Assembly: GCA_963789955.1 (NCBI GenBank)
Contig: CAWBMV010000006.1
Location: 64,001-128,000, forward strand
Source: an uncultured Candidatus Rokubacteria bacterium
GTDB taxonomy: Bacteria; Methylomirabilota; Methylomirabilia; Rokubacteriales; CSP1-6
Direction: 5' to 3'
Length of the DNA stretch: 64,000 bases
Program-made: the position numbers and the translations under genes
In this document: piece after piece, positions 2,667 through 9,139 of the stretch
How the letters are laid out: every line of letters starts with the position of its first letter
How positions within the stretch are numbered: the stretch's first letter is position 1
The notes under the pieces: model-generated
Seen by the model: only the letters and a program-made list of their open reading frames with translations
Told to the model about the DNA's origin: nothing
The model's database searches: none

Positions 2667-4051
2667 CTATCGATCCCGGAAGCCGTGGACGTGACTACCC
2701 ATGACGATCGTCCATTGCAGGAAGAACGCATCGTCGGTCGGCTTGGATGACGGCAAGCTCGTTTCGCTGTGGGTGTATTGGAGCCGAATGCGCTGGAACT
2801 CGGACGCCCAGATGGTGAAATACGGTGAGATCTGCCAGGTCGTGCGCGACGGATTGTCGATGTCCTGGACGTATTCCAGCAGGATCCCCGGGTAGTAGCG
2901 GCGGGTCAGGCGCGCCTCGAAATAGGTGTACGCGCCGACCGCATCGCGATATCTGAAGACCTGGGTAGGGCTGTCGTCGGTCGGGGGAATGCCCGGTCGG
3001 GCCTCGTGATTCACGAGGAGCTCGCTGCCCCAGATGAAGCCACGGTACGAGGACTGGCCCAGCGGTGCGTACCGCAACGTCATATCGAATCCGAACAGAT
3101 TTCGAGCCTTCAGCCCTTCGATTCGCACCTCCGGCGTGTAGGCGTCGCTCAGCCCGAGGTCGAGCCCTAGAGAATCGCTGAGGCTGAAGTACGTGGCCAC
3201 CCGACCCAGGTAGGTGAACTCCGAAAGATCGCGCGGTACGAGGTTGGAGACGCGATCGTTCTCGGCACCGATCTTGTTGTACATGCCGGCCGTGAACGTC
3301 AGGTACTGATCGATCGGCGCCAGCCAGCTCACCTCGACGCCGTCGGCCTGCGATTCTCCGCCGACGTACTGGTCGAGGACGAGGGGCCGGTTCACGAACG
3401 GCAGATCGTGGTCGTGGAACGTGGACAGGCGTCCGAACTCGGCGAAGAAGCGCCCGCCCTTGACCGTGAGGTTGTAGGGGAGCGCCGTCGTGACGATGGC
3501 GGCTTCCTCGACCTCGACCCCGTCCGCCGTCCCGTTGATGATGGCGTACGCCCTCGCAAACGGATCGACACTCGCCGAGATCCCCAGCTCACCCGACCGG
3601 AACTCGAAGTTCGAGTGGTTCTGCCGACTGTCGAGAACACCGAGTCGACGACGAATCCGATGGCTGGATTGAACTGAGATGGGAACGTCTTGTTCGCCGC
3701 GGCGAGTTGCGGCTGGATCTCGGCCAGGATCATTCGCTTGAGCTCCTCCGCGTCGACCGCCATGGGTGCCGGAGTCGGCGTCGCGGGCGGAGCCGCCGAG
3801 GGTATCGCCGGGGGAGGCGCTGCGGGCGCGGCTGACGGTGTGGGTGTGCCCGGTTTCTCGCCCGAGAGCTTTCGGATCAGCTCCTCCTGCTGTTTCATCT
3901 GTTGCTCGACGCGCTGCAACTGCTGCTTGACTGCGTCGAGCTCCCGGCGAAGCTGCTCTTCGCTCGCCGGCTGCTGGCTATGACCGGCGTAGGACCGCCG
4001 AGTATCACTGCCGTGCCCAGCAATACGACGACGGGAAGTAAGCACGCGCAT
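2667..4051 (-). CDS. Outer-membrane beta-barrel porin of the type linked to Zn/Mn ABC operons (frameshifted)
   Basis: Joined frames give a signal peptide, coiled coil, Pro/Ala linker, FNPAIG..EFRSGELGISASVDPFARAY..GRFFAEFGRLSTFHDHDLPFVNRP, amphipathic strands and C-terminal GSHVHGF. SD CGGAGGA at 4056-4062. Confidence 0.8.
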
Positions 4052-4127
4052 GCGATCCTCCGTATGGACATCGAGCTTGCCGGCAGCGGAGCCGGCGTGG
4101 TCGAGCTACGTCAGTGCGCGGAGGACG

Positions 4128-4409
4128 CTAGCGGAGCGGAGGAGCGCGAGAATCGAAGCGGTAGAGCGCCTGGCCCTGGATTCGGCCCGAGCGCTGGTGG
4201 GCCGCGAGCAGGGAGGCCAGGAACAGGACCACGACCGGTACGGTTTCGGCCAGCGACGCGGTCGAGCCGAGCGCCGCCATCAGGCTGAGGTCGTGCTCTG
4301 CGTTCCAGAGCCCCGACTCGGCCGAGACGTGGACGTGGAGAAGGGTCGCGCCGGCGACGACGAACGCGACGAGGCCCAGCACCAAGAGTAGCGACTTGAA
4401 CTTCGTCAC
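4128..4409 (-). CDS. Upstream leader / putative ribosome-arrest peptide with C-terminal RAPP (DUF2946/CruR-like, Cys-free)
   Basis: 93 aa: N-terminal hydrophobic segment, LHVHV, AEHD, and ends DSRAPPLR. Lies 76 nt upstream of the porin. Confidence 0.8.
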   Translation of the reverse strand: MTKFKSLLLVLGLVAFVVAGATLLHVHVSAESGLWNAEHDLSLMAALGSTASLAETVPVVVLFLASLLAAHQRSGRIQGQALYRFDSRAPPLR

Positions 4410-4416
4410 GGCGCTA

Positions 4417-4444
4417 ACAATACCTCACTTCTCGGTGTACGCAA
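4417..4444 (-). promoter_or_regulatory. Putative sigma70 promoter giving a leaderless transcript of the RAPP leader
   Basis: TTGCGT-N16-TATTGT, then 7 nt to GTG 4409. No SD in that 7-nt gap. Confidence 0.55.
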
Positions 4445-4476
4445 AGCCTGCGAAGGACTCACCCGAGGGGCGTGCC

Positions 4477-4845
4477 TCACCGCCGACCCGTCACCGTGAA
4501 GGTCAAGGTCGACTCGACGACGTGGCCGTCGACCGACAGCACGCGAAAGCTCACGGTATAGCGTCCGGGCGCGAGGAGAGGCAGCGAGACCGCGAGCCGC
4601 CGGGCATCCTCGGCCGACACCGCGACGTCACGCAGATCGACCTGGGCCCCCGCCTCGTTGGTCACCGACGCCTTCGAGTACGCCGGCTCGAGGCGCTCGT
4701 TGAACCAGAGCTCGACCCGGGGCGGCGGCTCGACGAGCGCGGCTCGCTGGGCGGGGACGGACTTCACGAGGACCGCGTGCGCGAGGGCCGCGGCAGGCCG
4801 GAGCAGCAGGGCGGCCAGCCCGGCGAGGACGAGACGCCGTCTCAT
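4477..4845 (-). CDS. copC: Periplasmic copper-binding protein CopC
   Basis: Signal peptide ending ALA-HAVL (N-terminal His), ELWFNERLE, YTVSFRVLSVDGH. Confidence 0.93.
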   Translation of the reverse strand: MRRRLVLAGLAALLLRPAAALAHAVLVKSVPAQRAALVEPPPRVELWFNERLEPAYSKASVTNEAGAQVDLRDVAVSAEDARRLAVSLPLLAPGRYTVSFRVLSVDGHVVESTLTFTVTGRR

Positions 4846-5210
4846 TTGATCTTCTCGATCGCGGTGACGGCCAGGTTCGGCAGAATGCCTCGCAAGGTGA
4901 ATCGTACCGCGTCGCCGACGGCCACGGCCTCCTGGATCTTCGGCGACGCGACGCGAAAGCCCATGGTCATCGCCGGCATGTAGCCCGGGATGTCGCCGTG
5001 CGTGAGCACGATCACCCCGAGCTCGGGAAAGATCGCGCGCACGACGCCGTCGACCGTCCACTGGCGCTCGACTCCGCTGGTGGCGGCGGTGCGCGCCTCG
5101 TCGAGCTCGCGCTCGAGCCGGGCCGCGCGAAGCCCCCAGAAGGCATAGCCCCAGCCCACACCGACGACGAGCGCCAGGTTGATCAGGAGCACCGCCTTCC
5201 AGGCCCGCAT
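4842..5210 (-). CDS. Membrane-anchored CusF-like copper-binding protein
   Basis: N-terminal TM. LTHGDIPGYMPAMTMGFRV carries the H..MxM CusF site, followed by VGDAVRF. Confidence 0.88.
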   Translation of the reverse strand: MRAWKAVLLINLALVVGVGWGYAFWGLRAARLERELDEARTAATSGVERQWTVDGVVRAIFPELGVIVLTHGDIPGYMPAMTMGFRVASPKIQEAVAVGDAVRFTLRGILPNLAVTAIEKIK

Positions 5211-7187
5211 CAGTGCACGTGCTCCTCCGGCGCCGCCTCCGCCGTGATCTTCTCGTCGTTGAGCTGCTGCACCTGGGCCATGAACGAATCGAGGTCGCCG
5301 GCCTCGCCGCCGCTTCGAGTGATGGCGCGGATGTAGCCCTGGCGATCGATGAGGAGCTCGACGTGCGGAGCGACCGCGAACATCCGATAGGCGGCCACGA
5401 TCGTCTCGGCGCCCTCGGTGACCACCGGGAACATGATGCGCGGGTCCGGACCGAGATGACGGATCGCGTCCGGGTCGGCGTCGATCGGCACCGCGATGAC
5501 CTCCACGCCGAGCATCGCCAGGCTTCCCTCGTGCTGGGCGATCTGAGTCATCCGCGCGCGCGAGCCGGGCAGCGCGTACAGCACGACCAGCACGTTGCGG
5601 CCCCGATAGTCCTTGAGCGTGCGCGCCGGCGTCGGGCCGACCGTGAACGTGAAGTCGGGTGCGACGAGCCAGCGCCGGTCGCGCTCGATCGTGGGTCCCA
5701 TGCCTCGGGCGCCGTACCCCGCCGACAGCGCGCGCAGGAAGTTGATCAGCTCCCAGCGTTGCTCCTCGCCGAGCCGCGAGTCGAATCCGGGCATCCCGGA
5801 TCCCGAGATCCCGTGACTGATCCACCAGAACAGGTCGCCCGCCGTGTGCTGCGCGGTGTGCGGCGCGCGCAGGTCGGCAGGGGACCGCGGAAGCCCTCGG
5901 CCGTCGGGGCCGTCGCCTGCGCCCCGCGGCCCGTGGCAGCCCGCGCAGTTCGTCTGGTAGAGCGCGGCGCCGGCCGTGATCGCGCCGGCCTGATAGGGTA
6001 CCGAAGGGCGCAGATACGTCGTCGGGTACGCGTCGATCGCCAGCGGCGGAAGCGCGAGCCCGGCGCCGGCCCCGAGCAAGGCGAGCGCGACCATCGCCAG
6101 GGGAAGCCGCCAGGCGCGCATCGCGATCCCGGCGATCAGGGCCAGCAGACCGATCACACCGATCTGGCTTCCGATCAACGCACGCGCCGTCTCGTCGGCG
6201 CGGCCCTCGAGCGCGGCGAACGACAGGCGGATCGTGAACGGCCAGAGTGGCGGCTCGTGACGGGCCGGCGGCGTGACGCTCATCGCGGCGACGATGGCGA
6301 CGATCGCCAGCGCCAGGATCGCCTCCACGAGCACAAATCCCGCGAGTCGGCGCATCGCCGGACGACCGACCGCCGGCCCGTCGCCGCCGAGACGGGCCAG
6401 AAGAACCGAGCGATTCACTGCGGCCAGCACGAGAATGAGCACCAGCAGCCCAAGCTTGGCGAGGAGCAGACGCCCGTAGGTCGTGCCGACGAGCCCGGCG
6501 ACGTTGCCGACGTGGGTGACCGCGAGCGTGGTGCCCGTGATCGCGAGCAGGAGGATCACGCCCAGCGCGGCGCGCGAGAAGCTCCGCGCCGCGAGCACCG
6601 CGTACGGCCGCGCATCCGCGCCGGCGTCCGTCGACGCCTTTTTCAGGAGAAGCGCCAGCGGGAGCAGCCCTCCCACCCAGATGCCGGCGCCGAGCACGTG
6701 CAGGGCGTCGACCGCGATCGCCCGCGCGGTGTCCGGCTCCACGGCGGCGGCGTGACCCGCCGCCGCGAGCGGCACCAGGGCCGCGACCCCGAGCAGCATC
6801 GCTTCGCCTCTCGCCGCCCGCCAGTCCGCGCGCCGCGCGACGGACACGCGCAAGGACAGGAAGGCGACGAGCATCGACGAGGAACCCGGCGCGCACGAGC
6901 CAGACGTGGCCGGCCTGGGTTTCGACCAGCACGCGTCCGATCGCGCGGGCTTCGAGCGCCGCGGCCGGCCGATCTTCGAAGAGGGCCGCCTGCGTACCGA
7001 CCACGACGAGGCCGGACGCGAGCGCGACGAGCGCGCAGCCCCACGCCCAGGCGAGCACGCGCCGCTCCCAGGCCAGTGCGGTCGCGCGATCAGAGCGGCC
7101 TGCCATCACGATCATCGCCGCGGCGCCGACGAGGAGGACCGAGCTGGCGAGATGGAACCAGCGAGCGGTGAGACCGAGCGCGTACAC
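5210..7187 (-). CDS. copD: CopD + cytochrome c + thioredoxin-fold fusion (frameshift near 6875)
   Basis: ARWFHL, AGHAAA, LHVLGAGIWVGGL, TTYGRLLLAKL (CopD). CAGCH heme motif with GMPGF. APDFTF..LKDYRGR redoxin-like domain. Ends EEHVH. Confidence 0.88.
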
Positions 7188-7253: not shown

Positions 7254-7764
7254 ATGCTGCGGGTCCTGGCGATGCTCGCCTTGGCCGCTTTCGTTCTGGC
7301 CGCGGGCCCGGCCGACGCTCACGTCGGCAGCGCCGAGCGCGCCGTGTTCGAGGCGCCGGAGCTTCCGGCGGCCTCGGAAGCCTCTGGTCCGACTCAGTTC
7401 CTGGTAGCGGGCGACTCGACCGACTTCCCGTGGCCGATTGCCCTGATCGTGCTCTTCGCCGCGGCGACCCTCACGCGGCGGCGTTCCCGCGGACTGGTCG
7501 CGGCGGTCCTGGTCGCTCCTGATCGCGATCCTCGGTGTCGAGGCGGCGGTGCATTCGGTGCACCACGCGTCCGGCGGCCAACCCGTCGCGTGTCCGACCG
7601 CCTCGGTCGCCGCGCATCTCGACGGCACCACGGTCGTGGCGCTCGCGCTGGACGAGCCCGTCCACCCGGTCGGCACCGCGACCGTGCTGTCCGGTCCGCG
7701 CCTCGCTTCACTCCGCTCGCTCGATCCGTCGCAGCCCCGGGCTCCCCCGTTCGCGCTCGCGTAG
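7254..7764 (+). CDS. Second upstream leader / putative arrest peptide with C-terminal RAPP (about 170 aa, frameshift near 7517)
   Basis: Signal peptide ending ADA-HVG, two hydrophobic segments, VHSVHH..ACPTASVAAH, and ends QPRAPPFALA. Lies 39 nt upstream of the porin gene. Confidence 0.78.
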
Positions 7765-7803
7765 ACATCGCGCGACGCTCCAAAAATTTCCCAGGGGGGT
7801 CCC

Positions 7804-8791
7804 ATGCAAGGGAAGACTCTATTCGCGTGCGCGCTCGCGCTGGCGCTCTCGTTCGCGACGTTCGACGCGGCTCAGGCCCACGGCCTGATCGGCAAGCGGT
7901 TTTTCCCGGCGACCTTGGCCACCGACGATCCGTTCGTGGCCGACGAGCTCTCGTTGCCGACCATCTCCTATCTCAAGCTCCGGGGCAGTGAAGACGCGCC
8001 CCCGACGAAACAGATCGACCTGAGCGGCGAGTTCTCGAAGCGTCTGAGTCCCGAATCTGGGCATCTCGCTCGCTGGGACCTTCACGATGCTGGACCCGGA
8101 CGAAGGCTCGTCCGTGAGCGGCTTCGACAACCTCGAGGTCTCGGCGAAGTACGTCTTCTTCAAGAACGCCCCGCACGAGCTCCTGCTGGCGGGCGGTCTC
8201 AGCTGGGACGTGGGCGGCACCGGCAGCAAGAAGGTCGACGCCGAGAGCTTCGACACGTGGACGCCGCAGCTCTTCTTCGGCAAGGGCTTCGGCGATCTGC
8301 CGGATCAGCTCGAGCTGATGAAGCCCTTCGCGGTGACCGGCGTGTTCGGCCTGGCGATTCCCTCGCGCGTGCACACGAAGACGTTCGAGACCGACGAAGA
8401 CGGCACCGTGGACGTGAAGAAGCCGCTGAATCCGATGGTGTTCCAGTGGGGGTTCAGCTTCCAGTACAACCTGCAATACCTGCAATCCTACGTGCGCGAC
8501 GTCGGGCTCCCGGCGCCGCTCAACCGGATGATTCCGATCGTCGAGCTCGTGCTCGAGACGCCGCTCGACGGGCGGGACGCCGGGCGCACGACCGGCACCG
8601 TGAACCCGGGGATCATCTGGTTCGGGCGGTATTTCCAGCTCGGGCTCGAGGCGGTCATTCCGGTCAACCACGACATCAGCAAGAACATCGGCGCCCTCGC
8701 GCAGATTCACTTCTATCTGGACGACATCCTGCCGCAGGTCTTCACGTGGACGCCGTTCCACGGCGTCCTCGGGCCGACGCAGCCGCAGTGA
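7804..8791 (+). CDS. Putative outer-membrane beta-barrel protein associated with copCD (frameshift near 8050)
   Basis: Signal peptide AQA-HGLIGKRFFPATLATDDPFVADELSLP. Alternating aromatic strands GFDNLEVSAKY, QLGLEAVIPVN, QIHFYLDD. Confidence 0.72.
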
Positions 8792-9139
8792 GCCGACTGC
8801 TGGCGGTGGCGCTGCTTCTGCTCGCTCCGAGCTGGGCCGGGGCTCACGCGTTTCCCGACCATTCCGAGCCCCGGGTCGGGCACACGGTGGAGGCGTCGCC
8901 GCCGGCAGTCCGCATCTGGTTCGACGGGCAGATCGAGCCCGTGTTCAGCAAGCTTCGCGTCGAGGACGCCAACAACCGACAGGTCGACAAGGGCGACTCG
9001 CGGGTGAATCCGACGGACGCGAACAATTCTCGAGGTCGGTCTGCCGCCGCTGGCGCCGGGCCGATATCGCGTGTTCTGGAGCGTCGTCGCCCGTGACGGC
9101 CACCGGACCGAGGGCGATTTTGCTTTTCGGGTGAAATAG
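8788..9139 (+). CDS. copC: Copper-binding protein CopC (frameshift near 9025)
   Basis: AGA-HAFPDHSEP, RIWFDGQIEPVFS, then LEVGLPPLAPGRYRVFWSVVARDGHRTEGDFAF. Confidence 0.9.

Follow-up and report, generated by a model that had tools for sequence, protein, structure and literature searches.

The stretch of DNA analysed here, 64,000 nucleotides (nt) in length and hereafter called the window, derives from an uncultured Candidatus Rokubacteria bacterium (contig CAWBMV010000006.1 of assembly GCA_963789955.1, positions 64,001 to 128,000) and carries on its minus strand a small open reading frame (ORF), the leader, ahead of a gene for a putative outer-membrane channel. The leader, which terminates in an Arg-Ala-Pro-Pro (RAPP) motif followed by two further residues, is best explained as a metal-sensing arrest leader of the CutF/CruR kind, with a helix before the channel gene that closes its Shine-Dalgarno sequence (SD); the probability of this assignment is roughly 0.5. 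The conserved partner of the SD is a complementary sequence (anti-SD) situated just past the leader stop codon, while the copy within the RAPP codons is a second one found in a minority of relatives. The anatomy of the sequence, the conservation of the peptide motif and of its spacing, and the position-specific complementarity are direct observations.

The leader peptide has a basic N-terminus followed by hydrophobic residues 4-28 (Kyte-Doolittle hydropathy >2), a feature of export signals and membrane anchors, and a second hydrophobic stretch spans residues 50-70. In an alignment of 19 leader members (A1), the residues H25, H27, N36, H39, D40, L41, A45, R88, P90, and P91 are invariant, and conservation extends along the whole peptide with a mean column identity of 54%. 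An A-G-A site precedes the histidine motif in most homologues, whereas an invariant cysteine pair (CXXC or CxxxC) is absent from this alignment. No Pfam or NCBIfam model matches the leader; the cut-off of DUF2946 (PF11162) is reached by 0/19 members, with a single member matching at E = 6.9.

Relatives of the leader are found in Rokubacteria/Methylomirabilota. By six-frame search, homologues occur in 21/61 related genomes, comprising 13/16 genomes of the same genus and 20/36 of the same family (the window's own genome left out), and in 0/24 genomes from the other families of the order. Of 8000 candidates scored in a profile search, 651 leader-like proteins reached E≤0.001, and every one is unnamed or annotated as “hypothetical”. 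Among the best 120 of these 651 proteins, 117 end in RAPP-x-x and three in RGPP-x-x, the two-residue tail is present in all 120, and the spacing between the HDL residues and the arginine of RAPP is 46 residues in 113, 45 in six, and 60 in one. With metagenome additions (80 of 263 stretches), the collection comprises 130 loci, 95 of which are unique. R[AGS]PP is present in 93/95 unique loci (RAPP 77, RGPP 15, RSPP 1) and lies exactly two codons ahead of the stop in 89 of the 93; loci L061 and L083 have no motif and are left out of later counts. Locus L020, from the unpublished genome G025, contributes one of n to the leader and junction counts, and no claim depends on it alone. The ORF thus bears the hallmarks of a RAPP-type arrest leader, as the initial annotation of this DNA had proposed.

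The place of the anti-SD emerges from the junctions of 83 usable loci among the 95 unique ones (12 were dropped for a missing motif or truncated flanks), 49 of which are representatives with <85% identity. Sliding a 12-nt frame along each locus (about 150 positions per locus) and scoring its duplex with the SD segment gives a mean of -12.5 kcal/mol for the first 12 nt past the stop, -9.1 kcal/mol for the RAPP codons, and a baseline of -7.1 kcal/mol (standard deviation 0.7). The post-stop segment ranks among the best 5% of positions in 65/83 loci and 35/49 representatives. TCCTCC occurs within 15 nt past the stop in 60/83 loci versus 7/83 for the stretch from RxPP to the last codon, and the shorter CCTCC in 66/83 versus 31/83. 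These counts do not uphold the headline claim of the initial annotation, namely that the RAPP codons double as the anti-SD, which is true for a minority of family members only. Complementarity is also retained where the words have changed: in one distant clade the post-stop CUCCGUCG is complementary to the SD CGACGGAG, and in another the post-stop CCUCUUGU faces ACAAGGGG at the SD. Cognate arms pair better than non-cognate ones (-14.81 versus -14.14 kcal/mol), with 203/10000 permutations equally good; in a first set of 38 loci, 103/5000 permutations were equally good. The interior of the junction, whose length between leader and channel gene is 54-104 nt, holds one or two hairpins of differing sequence with a mean z of -1.41 (z<-1 in 24/38 loci and z<-2 in 10/38). 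A helix between anti-SD and SD with inner hairpin(s) is therefore kept across the family, in line with what had been proposed, and a stall-linked SD switch is known from experiments for CutF (in part of PMC9973294). The leader and junction appear to have been kept before channel genes that diverged or were exchanged, because the leader of the window is 61% identical to that of a related genome (G024, locus L021), while identity between the channel proteins encoded next falls to 29% over the barrel (window 2691-3620, minus strand).

The initial annotation had described the junction at 4049-4148 on the minus strand, and all of its coordinates and sequences hold. Its pairing of GCG-TCCTCCG with CGGAGGA-T-CGC around an inner GCCGGC stem is recovered in the minimum free energy (MFE) fold of 4160-4040, in which GCG-UCCUCCG pairs with CGGAGGA-(bulged U)-CGC and the inner stem forms; the 5′ arm used is the post-stop copy, which begins two bases past the TAG stop, and not the RAPP codons. 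In the free mRNA of the window, the pairing probability of the SD is 0.64 with the post-stop copy and 0.07 with the RAPP copy. Position-specific complementarity, with which the MFE fold agrees, places the SD of the channel gene in a conserved predicted helix. An intrinsic attenuator at the junction is ruled out, as the inner hairpin has no U tract, and neither a terminator-like nor a promoter-like site was found between leader and channel gene. A scan of 3900-4500 against Rfam gave no match at E≤1.

Table 1. Features of the leader, the junction, and the channel gene in the window (all on the minus strand)
Feature	Position	Strand	Remarks
Leader ORF	4409-4128	minus	93 amino acids (aa), GTG start; C-terminus ...DSRAPPLR-stop; from translation and hydropathy
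Presumed metal-binding motif codons	4287..4337	minus	H25-x-H27 and N36-x-E-H39-D40-L41; metal role putative
R-A-P-P codons CGC GCT CCT CCG	4148-4137	minus	presumed arrest site; residues 88-91 of 93
First anti-SD copy TCCTCCG	4143-4137	minus	within the RAPP codons
Pro1 in P site, Pro2 in A site	4142-4140 (Pro1), 4139-4137 (Pro2)	minus	presumed, by toeprints on other RAPP peptides (in part of PMC12992588)
Leader stop TAG	4130-4128	minus	after the L-R codons; last base is the helix start
Conserved 5′ arm GCG-UCCUCCG (post-stop anti-SD)	4128..4119	minus	second TCCTCCG at 4125-4119; SD-paired in MFE fold; position conserved
Inner hairpin GCCGGC-UCCGCU-GCCGGC	4096-4079	minus	arms 4096-4091/4084-4079; no U tract behind
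SD CGGAGGA of channel gene	4062-4056	minus	3′ arm of helix; spacer TCGC; GGAGG invariant in alignment A2
Channel gene ATG	4051-4049	minus	by orthology; ATGCG start after SD kept in relatives
Putative outer-membrane beta-barrel channel gene (“porin 1”)	2667..4051	minus	three frames in window; ATG 4051 by orthology

In the proposed mechanism, the leader would be a small exported or membrane-anchored peptide whose fixed histidine motif most likely binds metal and whose R(A/G)PP end would arrest the ribosome near the stop codon. The post-stop pyrimidine tract CUCCUCC (4125-4119, with GCG at 4128-4126) would pair with the GGAGGA of the SD across one or two variable hairpins and keep the ribosome-binding site of the channel gene closed, with genes for a ZnuA-like importer of the ATP-binding cassette (ABC) type lying downstream of the channel. 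A ribosome arrested at RAPP would place its mRNA entrance exactly at the foot of the helix, which could be opened either by this ribosome dwelling at RAPP or by its advance over the three remaining codons as far as the stop. The hold time of the leader ribosome would then govern how the channel gene is translated, and the metal motif, 46 residues back and just beyond the exit tunnel, would modulate that hold time. Stalling at RAPP, metal binding, formation of the helix in vivo, and the sign (on or off) of the arrest are all presumed in this scheme.

The geometry of the junction is tight. With the first base of Pro1 (4142) numbered +1, the stop codon occupies +13 to +15, the helix starts at +15, the conserved arm extends from +15 to +24, and the anti-SD core lies at +18 to +23. 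A bacterial ribosome covers its mRNA to about +13 to +16 (toeprints at +16/17, helicase near +11). The conserved 5′ arm therefore does not lie beneath the arrested ribosome; only the minority copy in the RAPP codons does. When the last sense codon is in the P site, the ribosome covers 4145-4118, which includes both anti-SD copies, and masking the footprint of a ribosome at the stop codon lowers SD pairing to <0.75 in 13/20 loci. That the tail is held so strictly to two codons points to a role for the distance between arrest site and helix. Release of the SD through masking of the anti-SD by a stalled ribosome, as the initial annotation had inferred, is not supported by the folds: when the RAPP footprint (-12 to +16, textbook limits) is masked, the SD of the window pairs with the post-stop copy at 0.99. 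Overall, the mechanism put forward there is partly supported, in that a stall-linked anti-SD helix is upheld while masking of the conserved copy by RAPP arrest is not predicted.

Several results weigh against the interpretation as an arrest-controlled helix. With the RAPP footprint masked, SD pairing remains at least 0.87 in 16/20 loci, and arrest itself is not predicted to free the SD because the anti-SD core lies outside the footprint of the arrested ribosome. In folds of 4200-4030, the SD of the window is paired at no less than 0.94 under all seven maskings, including the one that hides both copies. With the upstream sequence shuffled, SD pairing is still 0.79-0.91; since predicted pairing survives every masking and shuffling, such folds cannot decide the mechanism. 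The fold of the window is ordinary (z = -0.68), and 56/200 shuffled sequences fold equally well. Classical covariation among orthologues, a check named in the initial annotation, is weak, as the SD hardly varies. RNAalifold finds only four invariant pairs (-0.23 kcal/mol) on 37 junctions aligned with MAFFT, those of CC.CC from both proline codons with GG.GG of the SD; it recovers no others because the register of the post-stop arm differs from clade to clade. Kinship among the loci means that counts overstate their independence. The first 15 nt past the stop resemble a Rho loading site, with 53% C, 16% G, and 5.6 YC dinucleotides per 15 nt compared to approximately 2.7-3.5 elsewhere. Finally, the channel gene is frameshifted in the window assembly. 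Because predicted SD pairing does not discriminate at the 68% G+C of the window DNA, the case rests on position-specific conservation.

That same C-rich tract is the starting point for an alternative of the CruR type, in which a C/U-rich, G-poor region at the leader stop would load Rho, an arrested ribosome would cover it and permit read-through into the channel and ABC genes, and release would lead to termination. Between about -60 and +30 relative to the stop there is more C than G, with a skew peak of 0.53 in the first 15 nt past it, and the genome encodes Rho. CruR itself provides a precedent, having an unstructured region richer in C than in G and a RAPP that lies three residues short of its C-terminus (in part of PMC9426467), and ApcA, ApdA, and ApdP lack a predicted SD-sequestering hairpin according to part of PMC7897499. 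Attenuation of this sort is nonetheless rather unlikely, since the sharpest conservation is that of an SD complement at a fixed place, the tract and the SD flank vary in concert among distant clades in a way that a plain rut site would not need, and the intergenic region is short with stable hairpins, compared to 162 nt in CruR. The tract is also predicted to be SD-paired, and Rho attenuation could operate alongside SD sequestration. Plain translational coupling devoid of sensing, in which the helix would do no more than make channel translation conditional on full translation of the leader, with RAPP and the histidine motif serving the mature small protein (for instance, a metal-binding membrane peptide), would account for the finding that the ribosome at the stop codon, rather than the one at RAPP, covers the conserved anti-SD, as well as for the conservation of the peptide along its length. 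It is quite unlikely, given that RAPP-like motifs are reported to be strongly avoided in proteomes outside such leaders (in part of PMC12992588), that alternation is seen only between the strong arrest cores RAPP and RGPP, and that coupling alone would not call for a tail of exactly two codons. A functionless pairing that arose by chance in G+C-rich DNA would fit the ordinary statistics of the window: the heptamer TCCTCCG has 18 matches against 22.7 expected, the best 12-nt SD duplex (-14.4 kcal/mol) is close to the mean of -12.6 kcal/mol for the GGAGGA starts of the genome (standard deviation 3.1, n=156), the fold z-score is unexceptional, and the SD pairs whatever is masked or shuffled. It is extremely unlikely in view of the position-specific conservation over 83 loci and 49 representatives and of the other GGAGGA starts in the same genome, whose 100 nt upstream contain two TCCTCC copies in 0/156 cases and one copy in 7/156 (4.5%).

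The model of the initial annotation, in which the A-P-P codons are the operative anti-SD and a ribosome arrested on them frees the SD in the manner of SecM and MifM, is very unlikely, even though several features of the codons speak for it. In the window, the pairing of the RAPP codons with the SD surpasses that of 99.7% of synonymous versions, and 10/49 representatives fall within the lowest 10% of the synonymous null, where 4.9 are expected. The alanine codon GCT, which faces an A of GGAGGA, is used at RAPP in 21/70 cases versus 6.3% elsewhere in the same ORFs, and CCT at Pro1, which faces the other A, in 23/83 versus 11.1%; Pro2 shows no such enrichment of CCT (5/83). The enrichment of T at these codons possibly reflects rare codons at a stall site instead, and Pro-Pro codons (CCNCC) face GGAGG/GGNGG by their nature, which are the four pairs that RNAalifold selects. 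In addition, two other RAPP leaders of the same genome carry an SD complement within their RAPP codons. Family-wide, however, the gain over synonymous nulls is not significant (mean -0.91 kcal/mol, p = 0.06, median percentile 0.44). The rarity of TCCTCC in these codons, their small share of SD pairing in free mRNA, and the persistence of pairing when they are masked likewise argue against this model.

A different logic, rather unlikely but compatible with the same layout, is that of a parked ribosome. Here, arrest one step before the helix would hold the operon off, and release by metal would let the ribosome proceed to the stop and free the SD. The three-codon run to the stop would melt both anti-SD copies at once, whereupon a fresh 30S subunit would take up the freed SD. 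Sensing would fall to a His3/Asp site displayed beyond the tunnel by a peptide family that has no sequence relationship to DUF2946, and the strict two-codon tail would act as the ruler that sets the geometry. If true, this would represent a metal-licensed translational coupling device, unlike SecM, CutF, and CruR, where arrest means on.

Returning to the metal-sensing arrest leader with its SD helix, the closest parallels are recently discovered metal leaders of the CutF and CruR type, whose outputs differ, being SD unmasking in one and Rho termination in the other. In the cutFOG operon of Rhodobacter capsulatus, an intergenic stem-loop anti-SD shields the SD of cutO, and its opening needs in-cis translation of the CutF leader, the metal motif, and the proline-rich end (both in part of PMC9973294). 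A 2025 preprint on CutF reports that stalling melts the stem-loop (bioRxiv 10.1101/2025.02.05.636593). The leader described here resembles CutF as a small exported in-cis leader that combines a metal motif with a proline motif at the C-terminus, at which stalling is presumed by analogy, in a metal-homeostasis operon; in both, it is the stem-loop between the genes, rather than the stall codons, that contains the conserved anti-SD copy. Unlike CutF, which belongs to DUF2946 and bears CxxxC, this family has no Pfam match and carries a His/Asn/Asp motif, precedes an outer-membrane channel and a ZnuA-type importer instead of a multicopper oxidase, ends in RAPP/RGPP with a fixed two-codon tail, and occurs in the phylum Rokubacteria/Methylomirabilota. 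CutF-like clusters with histidines only adjoin HupE/UreJ genes, not channel or Znu genes (in part of PMC9973294). Rokubacteria and Methylomirabilota do not appear in a short part (8,054 characters) of the supplementary text of PMC9973294, to which its member lists do not belong.

CruR (Bp2923 of Bordetella pertussis) carries RAPP three residues from its end and CXXC 45 residues upstream, which together control a TonB-dependent transporter via Rho (in part of PMC9426467). Shared features include (i) an upstream ORF with a signal sequence, (ii) RAPP near the C-terminus, (iii) an outer-membrane uptake protein encoded downstream, and (iv) a C-rich, G-poor tract near the 3′ end. The 46-residue spacing from HDL to arginine also parallels the fixed 45 residues between CXXC and RAPP of CruR (same source, in part). 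Rho-dependent termination, a 162-nt intergenic region, CXXC, and DUF2946 are, on the other hand, features of CruR that set it apart from the present leader, behind which the intergenic region is short and structured and keeps its SD complement at a constant position.

Among arrest peptides more broadly, part of PMC12992588 describes RAPP and RGPP as robust arrest cores refractory to EF-P, reports that RAPP peptides arrest while Pro1 occupies the P site and Pro2 the A site, and treats small secretory or membrane proteins with RAPP/RGPP upstream of metal genes as a class. Like ApcA, ApdA, ApdP, and the S. lividans set, the present leader has R-A/G-P-P near its C-terminus and lies upstream of the gene it would regulate (in parts of PMC7897499, PMC10951233, and PMC12992588); its arrest is presumed by analogy with these peptides. 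In contrast to ApcA, ApdA, and ApdP, for which part of PMC7897499 gives no predicted SD hairpin, it is followed by a conserved SD helix, which is a useful addition because none is predicted for those three. An arrest near the leader end combined with an SD-hiding stem-loop is shared with SecM-secA, MifM-yidC2, VemP-secDF2, and uDF_RQH-secDF2 (in parts of PMC10987492 and PMC7897499). These leaders monitor protein export, and according to the same parts their arrested ribosome interferes with the stem-loop directly, while the 5′ arm here begins at the edge of the arrested ribosome and would be fully covered only at the stop codon.

If correctly assigned, the leader would take this class into a soil phylum without cultured members, add a sensor that is built on histidines and lies outside any Pfam family, and bring an outer-membrane channel and a ZnuA-type importer under its regulation. 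Its layout is unusually rigid: RxPP, two codons, the stop, two or three bases, the anti-SD, the hairpin(s), and the SD. This rigidity makes it a testable question whether an arrested or a just-escaped ribosome opens the SD.

The surroundings are those of a metal-homeostasis operon, with CopC, CopD, and CusF-like genes upstream and the channel, ZnuA, and ABC-3 permease genes downstream. In the relatives and in the window, the shared one-strand order begins with a CopD-cytochrome c-thioredoxin fusion, a CusF-like gene (accompanied in some by a YncE-like propeller), CopC, and the leader, and continues with a 440-470-aa protein, a ZnuA-like binding protein, in some cases an ATPase, and finally the ABC-3 permease. 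The 440-470-aa product is likely an outer-membrane channel. Its orthologues carry a signal peptide and a coiled coil, and their C-terminal part has many long beta strands; Porin_O_P is found in 22% of the members of an Atlas neighbour cluster of the channel protein. Pfam and NCBIfam searches with the protein and its orthologues yielded no family, only coiled-coil noise. An AlphaFold2 model of an orthologous channel (25-row alignment) is poor, with a predicted local distance difference test (pLDDT) score of 45.7, and shows long beta strands in the C-terminal half.

In the window, the channel gene can be read only across three frames (2667-4071, minus strand): that of ATG 4071 carries the signal peptide, that of ATG 4051 the coiled coil, and the third the barrel, from near position 3650. 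In two sequencing runs, related contigs have one extra base at 3629/3631, a frame-change site, and the CopD gene (5210-7171, minus strand) and the gene at 7804-9096 (plus strand) are likewise broken; the breaks therefore suggest an indel-prone assembly rather than decay, although true pseudogenes are possible. The runs that match the stretch are listed as DNA only, with no RNA, and share ≤15% of its words. The related contigs barely reach 3816-4500 and have no bearing on the leader or the helix.

The invariant N-x-E-H-D-L of the leader (4287-4304, minus strand) resembles an invariant H-E-H-D-L-P-W of the channel orthologues (alignment A3, positions 205-209), which reads H-D-H-D-L-P-F in the channel protein of the window. 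This likeness could reflect a shared metal site or coincidence.

Two further elements occur in subsets of the junctions. In the subclade of L003, L007-L009, L011, L014, L033, and L040, the codons for D-A-M-P-V-L-G, at -123 to -93 before the end of the leader stop, are complementary to the SD-spacer-AUG stretch with duplex energies of -18 to -25 kcal/mol, compared to only -12.8 in the window, and possibly serve as a third pairing partner of the SD in that subclade. The sequence GAACGG(C/T)CGACGAA, which contains the palindrome GTCGAC, follows the second hairpin in L004, L005, L007, L010, L013-L015, L033, and L040. It is confined to longer intergenic regions, is absent from the shorter one of the window, and could be a protein-binding site or a structural element.

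The same genome contains 16 small-ORF frames ending in RAPP that pass a coding-signature filter. One of these, on contig G000:C22 (L148, minus strand), ends in ...RAPPSA-stop 76 nt ahead of a TatA-like gene, and its R-A-P codons include GTGCTCC, the exact complement of that gene's SD GGAGCAC (duplex -22.5 kcal/mol). Another on the same contig (L149, plus strand) ends in ...DRAPPSLAS-stop and has RAPP codons complementary to the downstream GAGGGGAGG. In these two leaders, the RAPP codons may act as a literal anti-SD. The window itself holds a second small ORF at 7549-7764 on the plus strand, which ends in ...SQPRAPPFALA-stop, 39 nt before the frameshifted outer-membrane-type gene at 7804-9096. 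Its match to DUF2946 is weak and sub-threshold (E = 0.41), and its proline codons CCCCC face a G-run SD. Because of this second unit at 7549-9096, the window comprises two divergent units, each made up of a RAPP leader and an outer-membrane gene.

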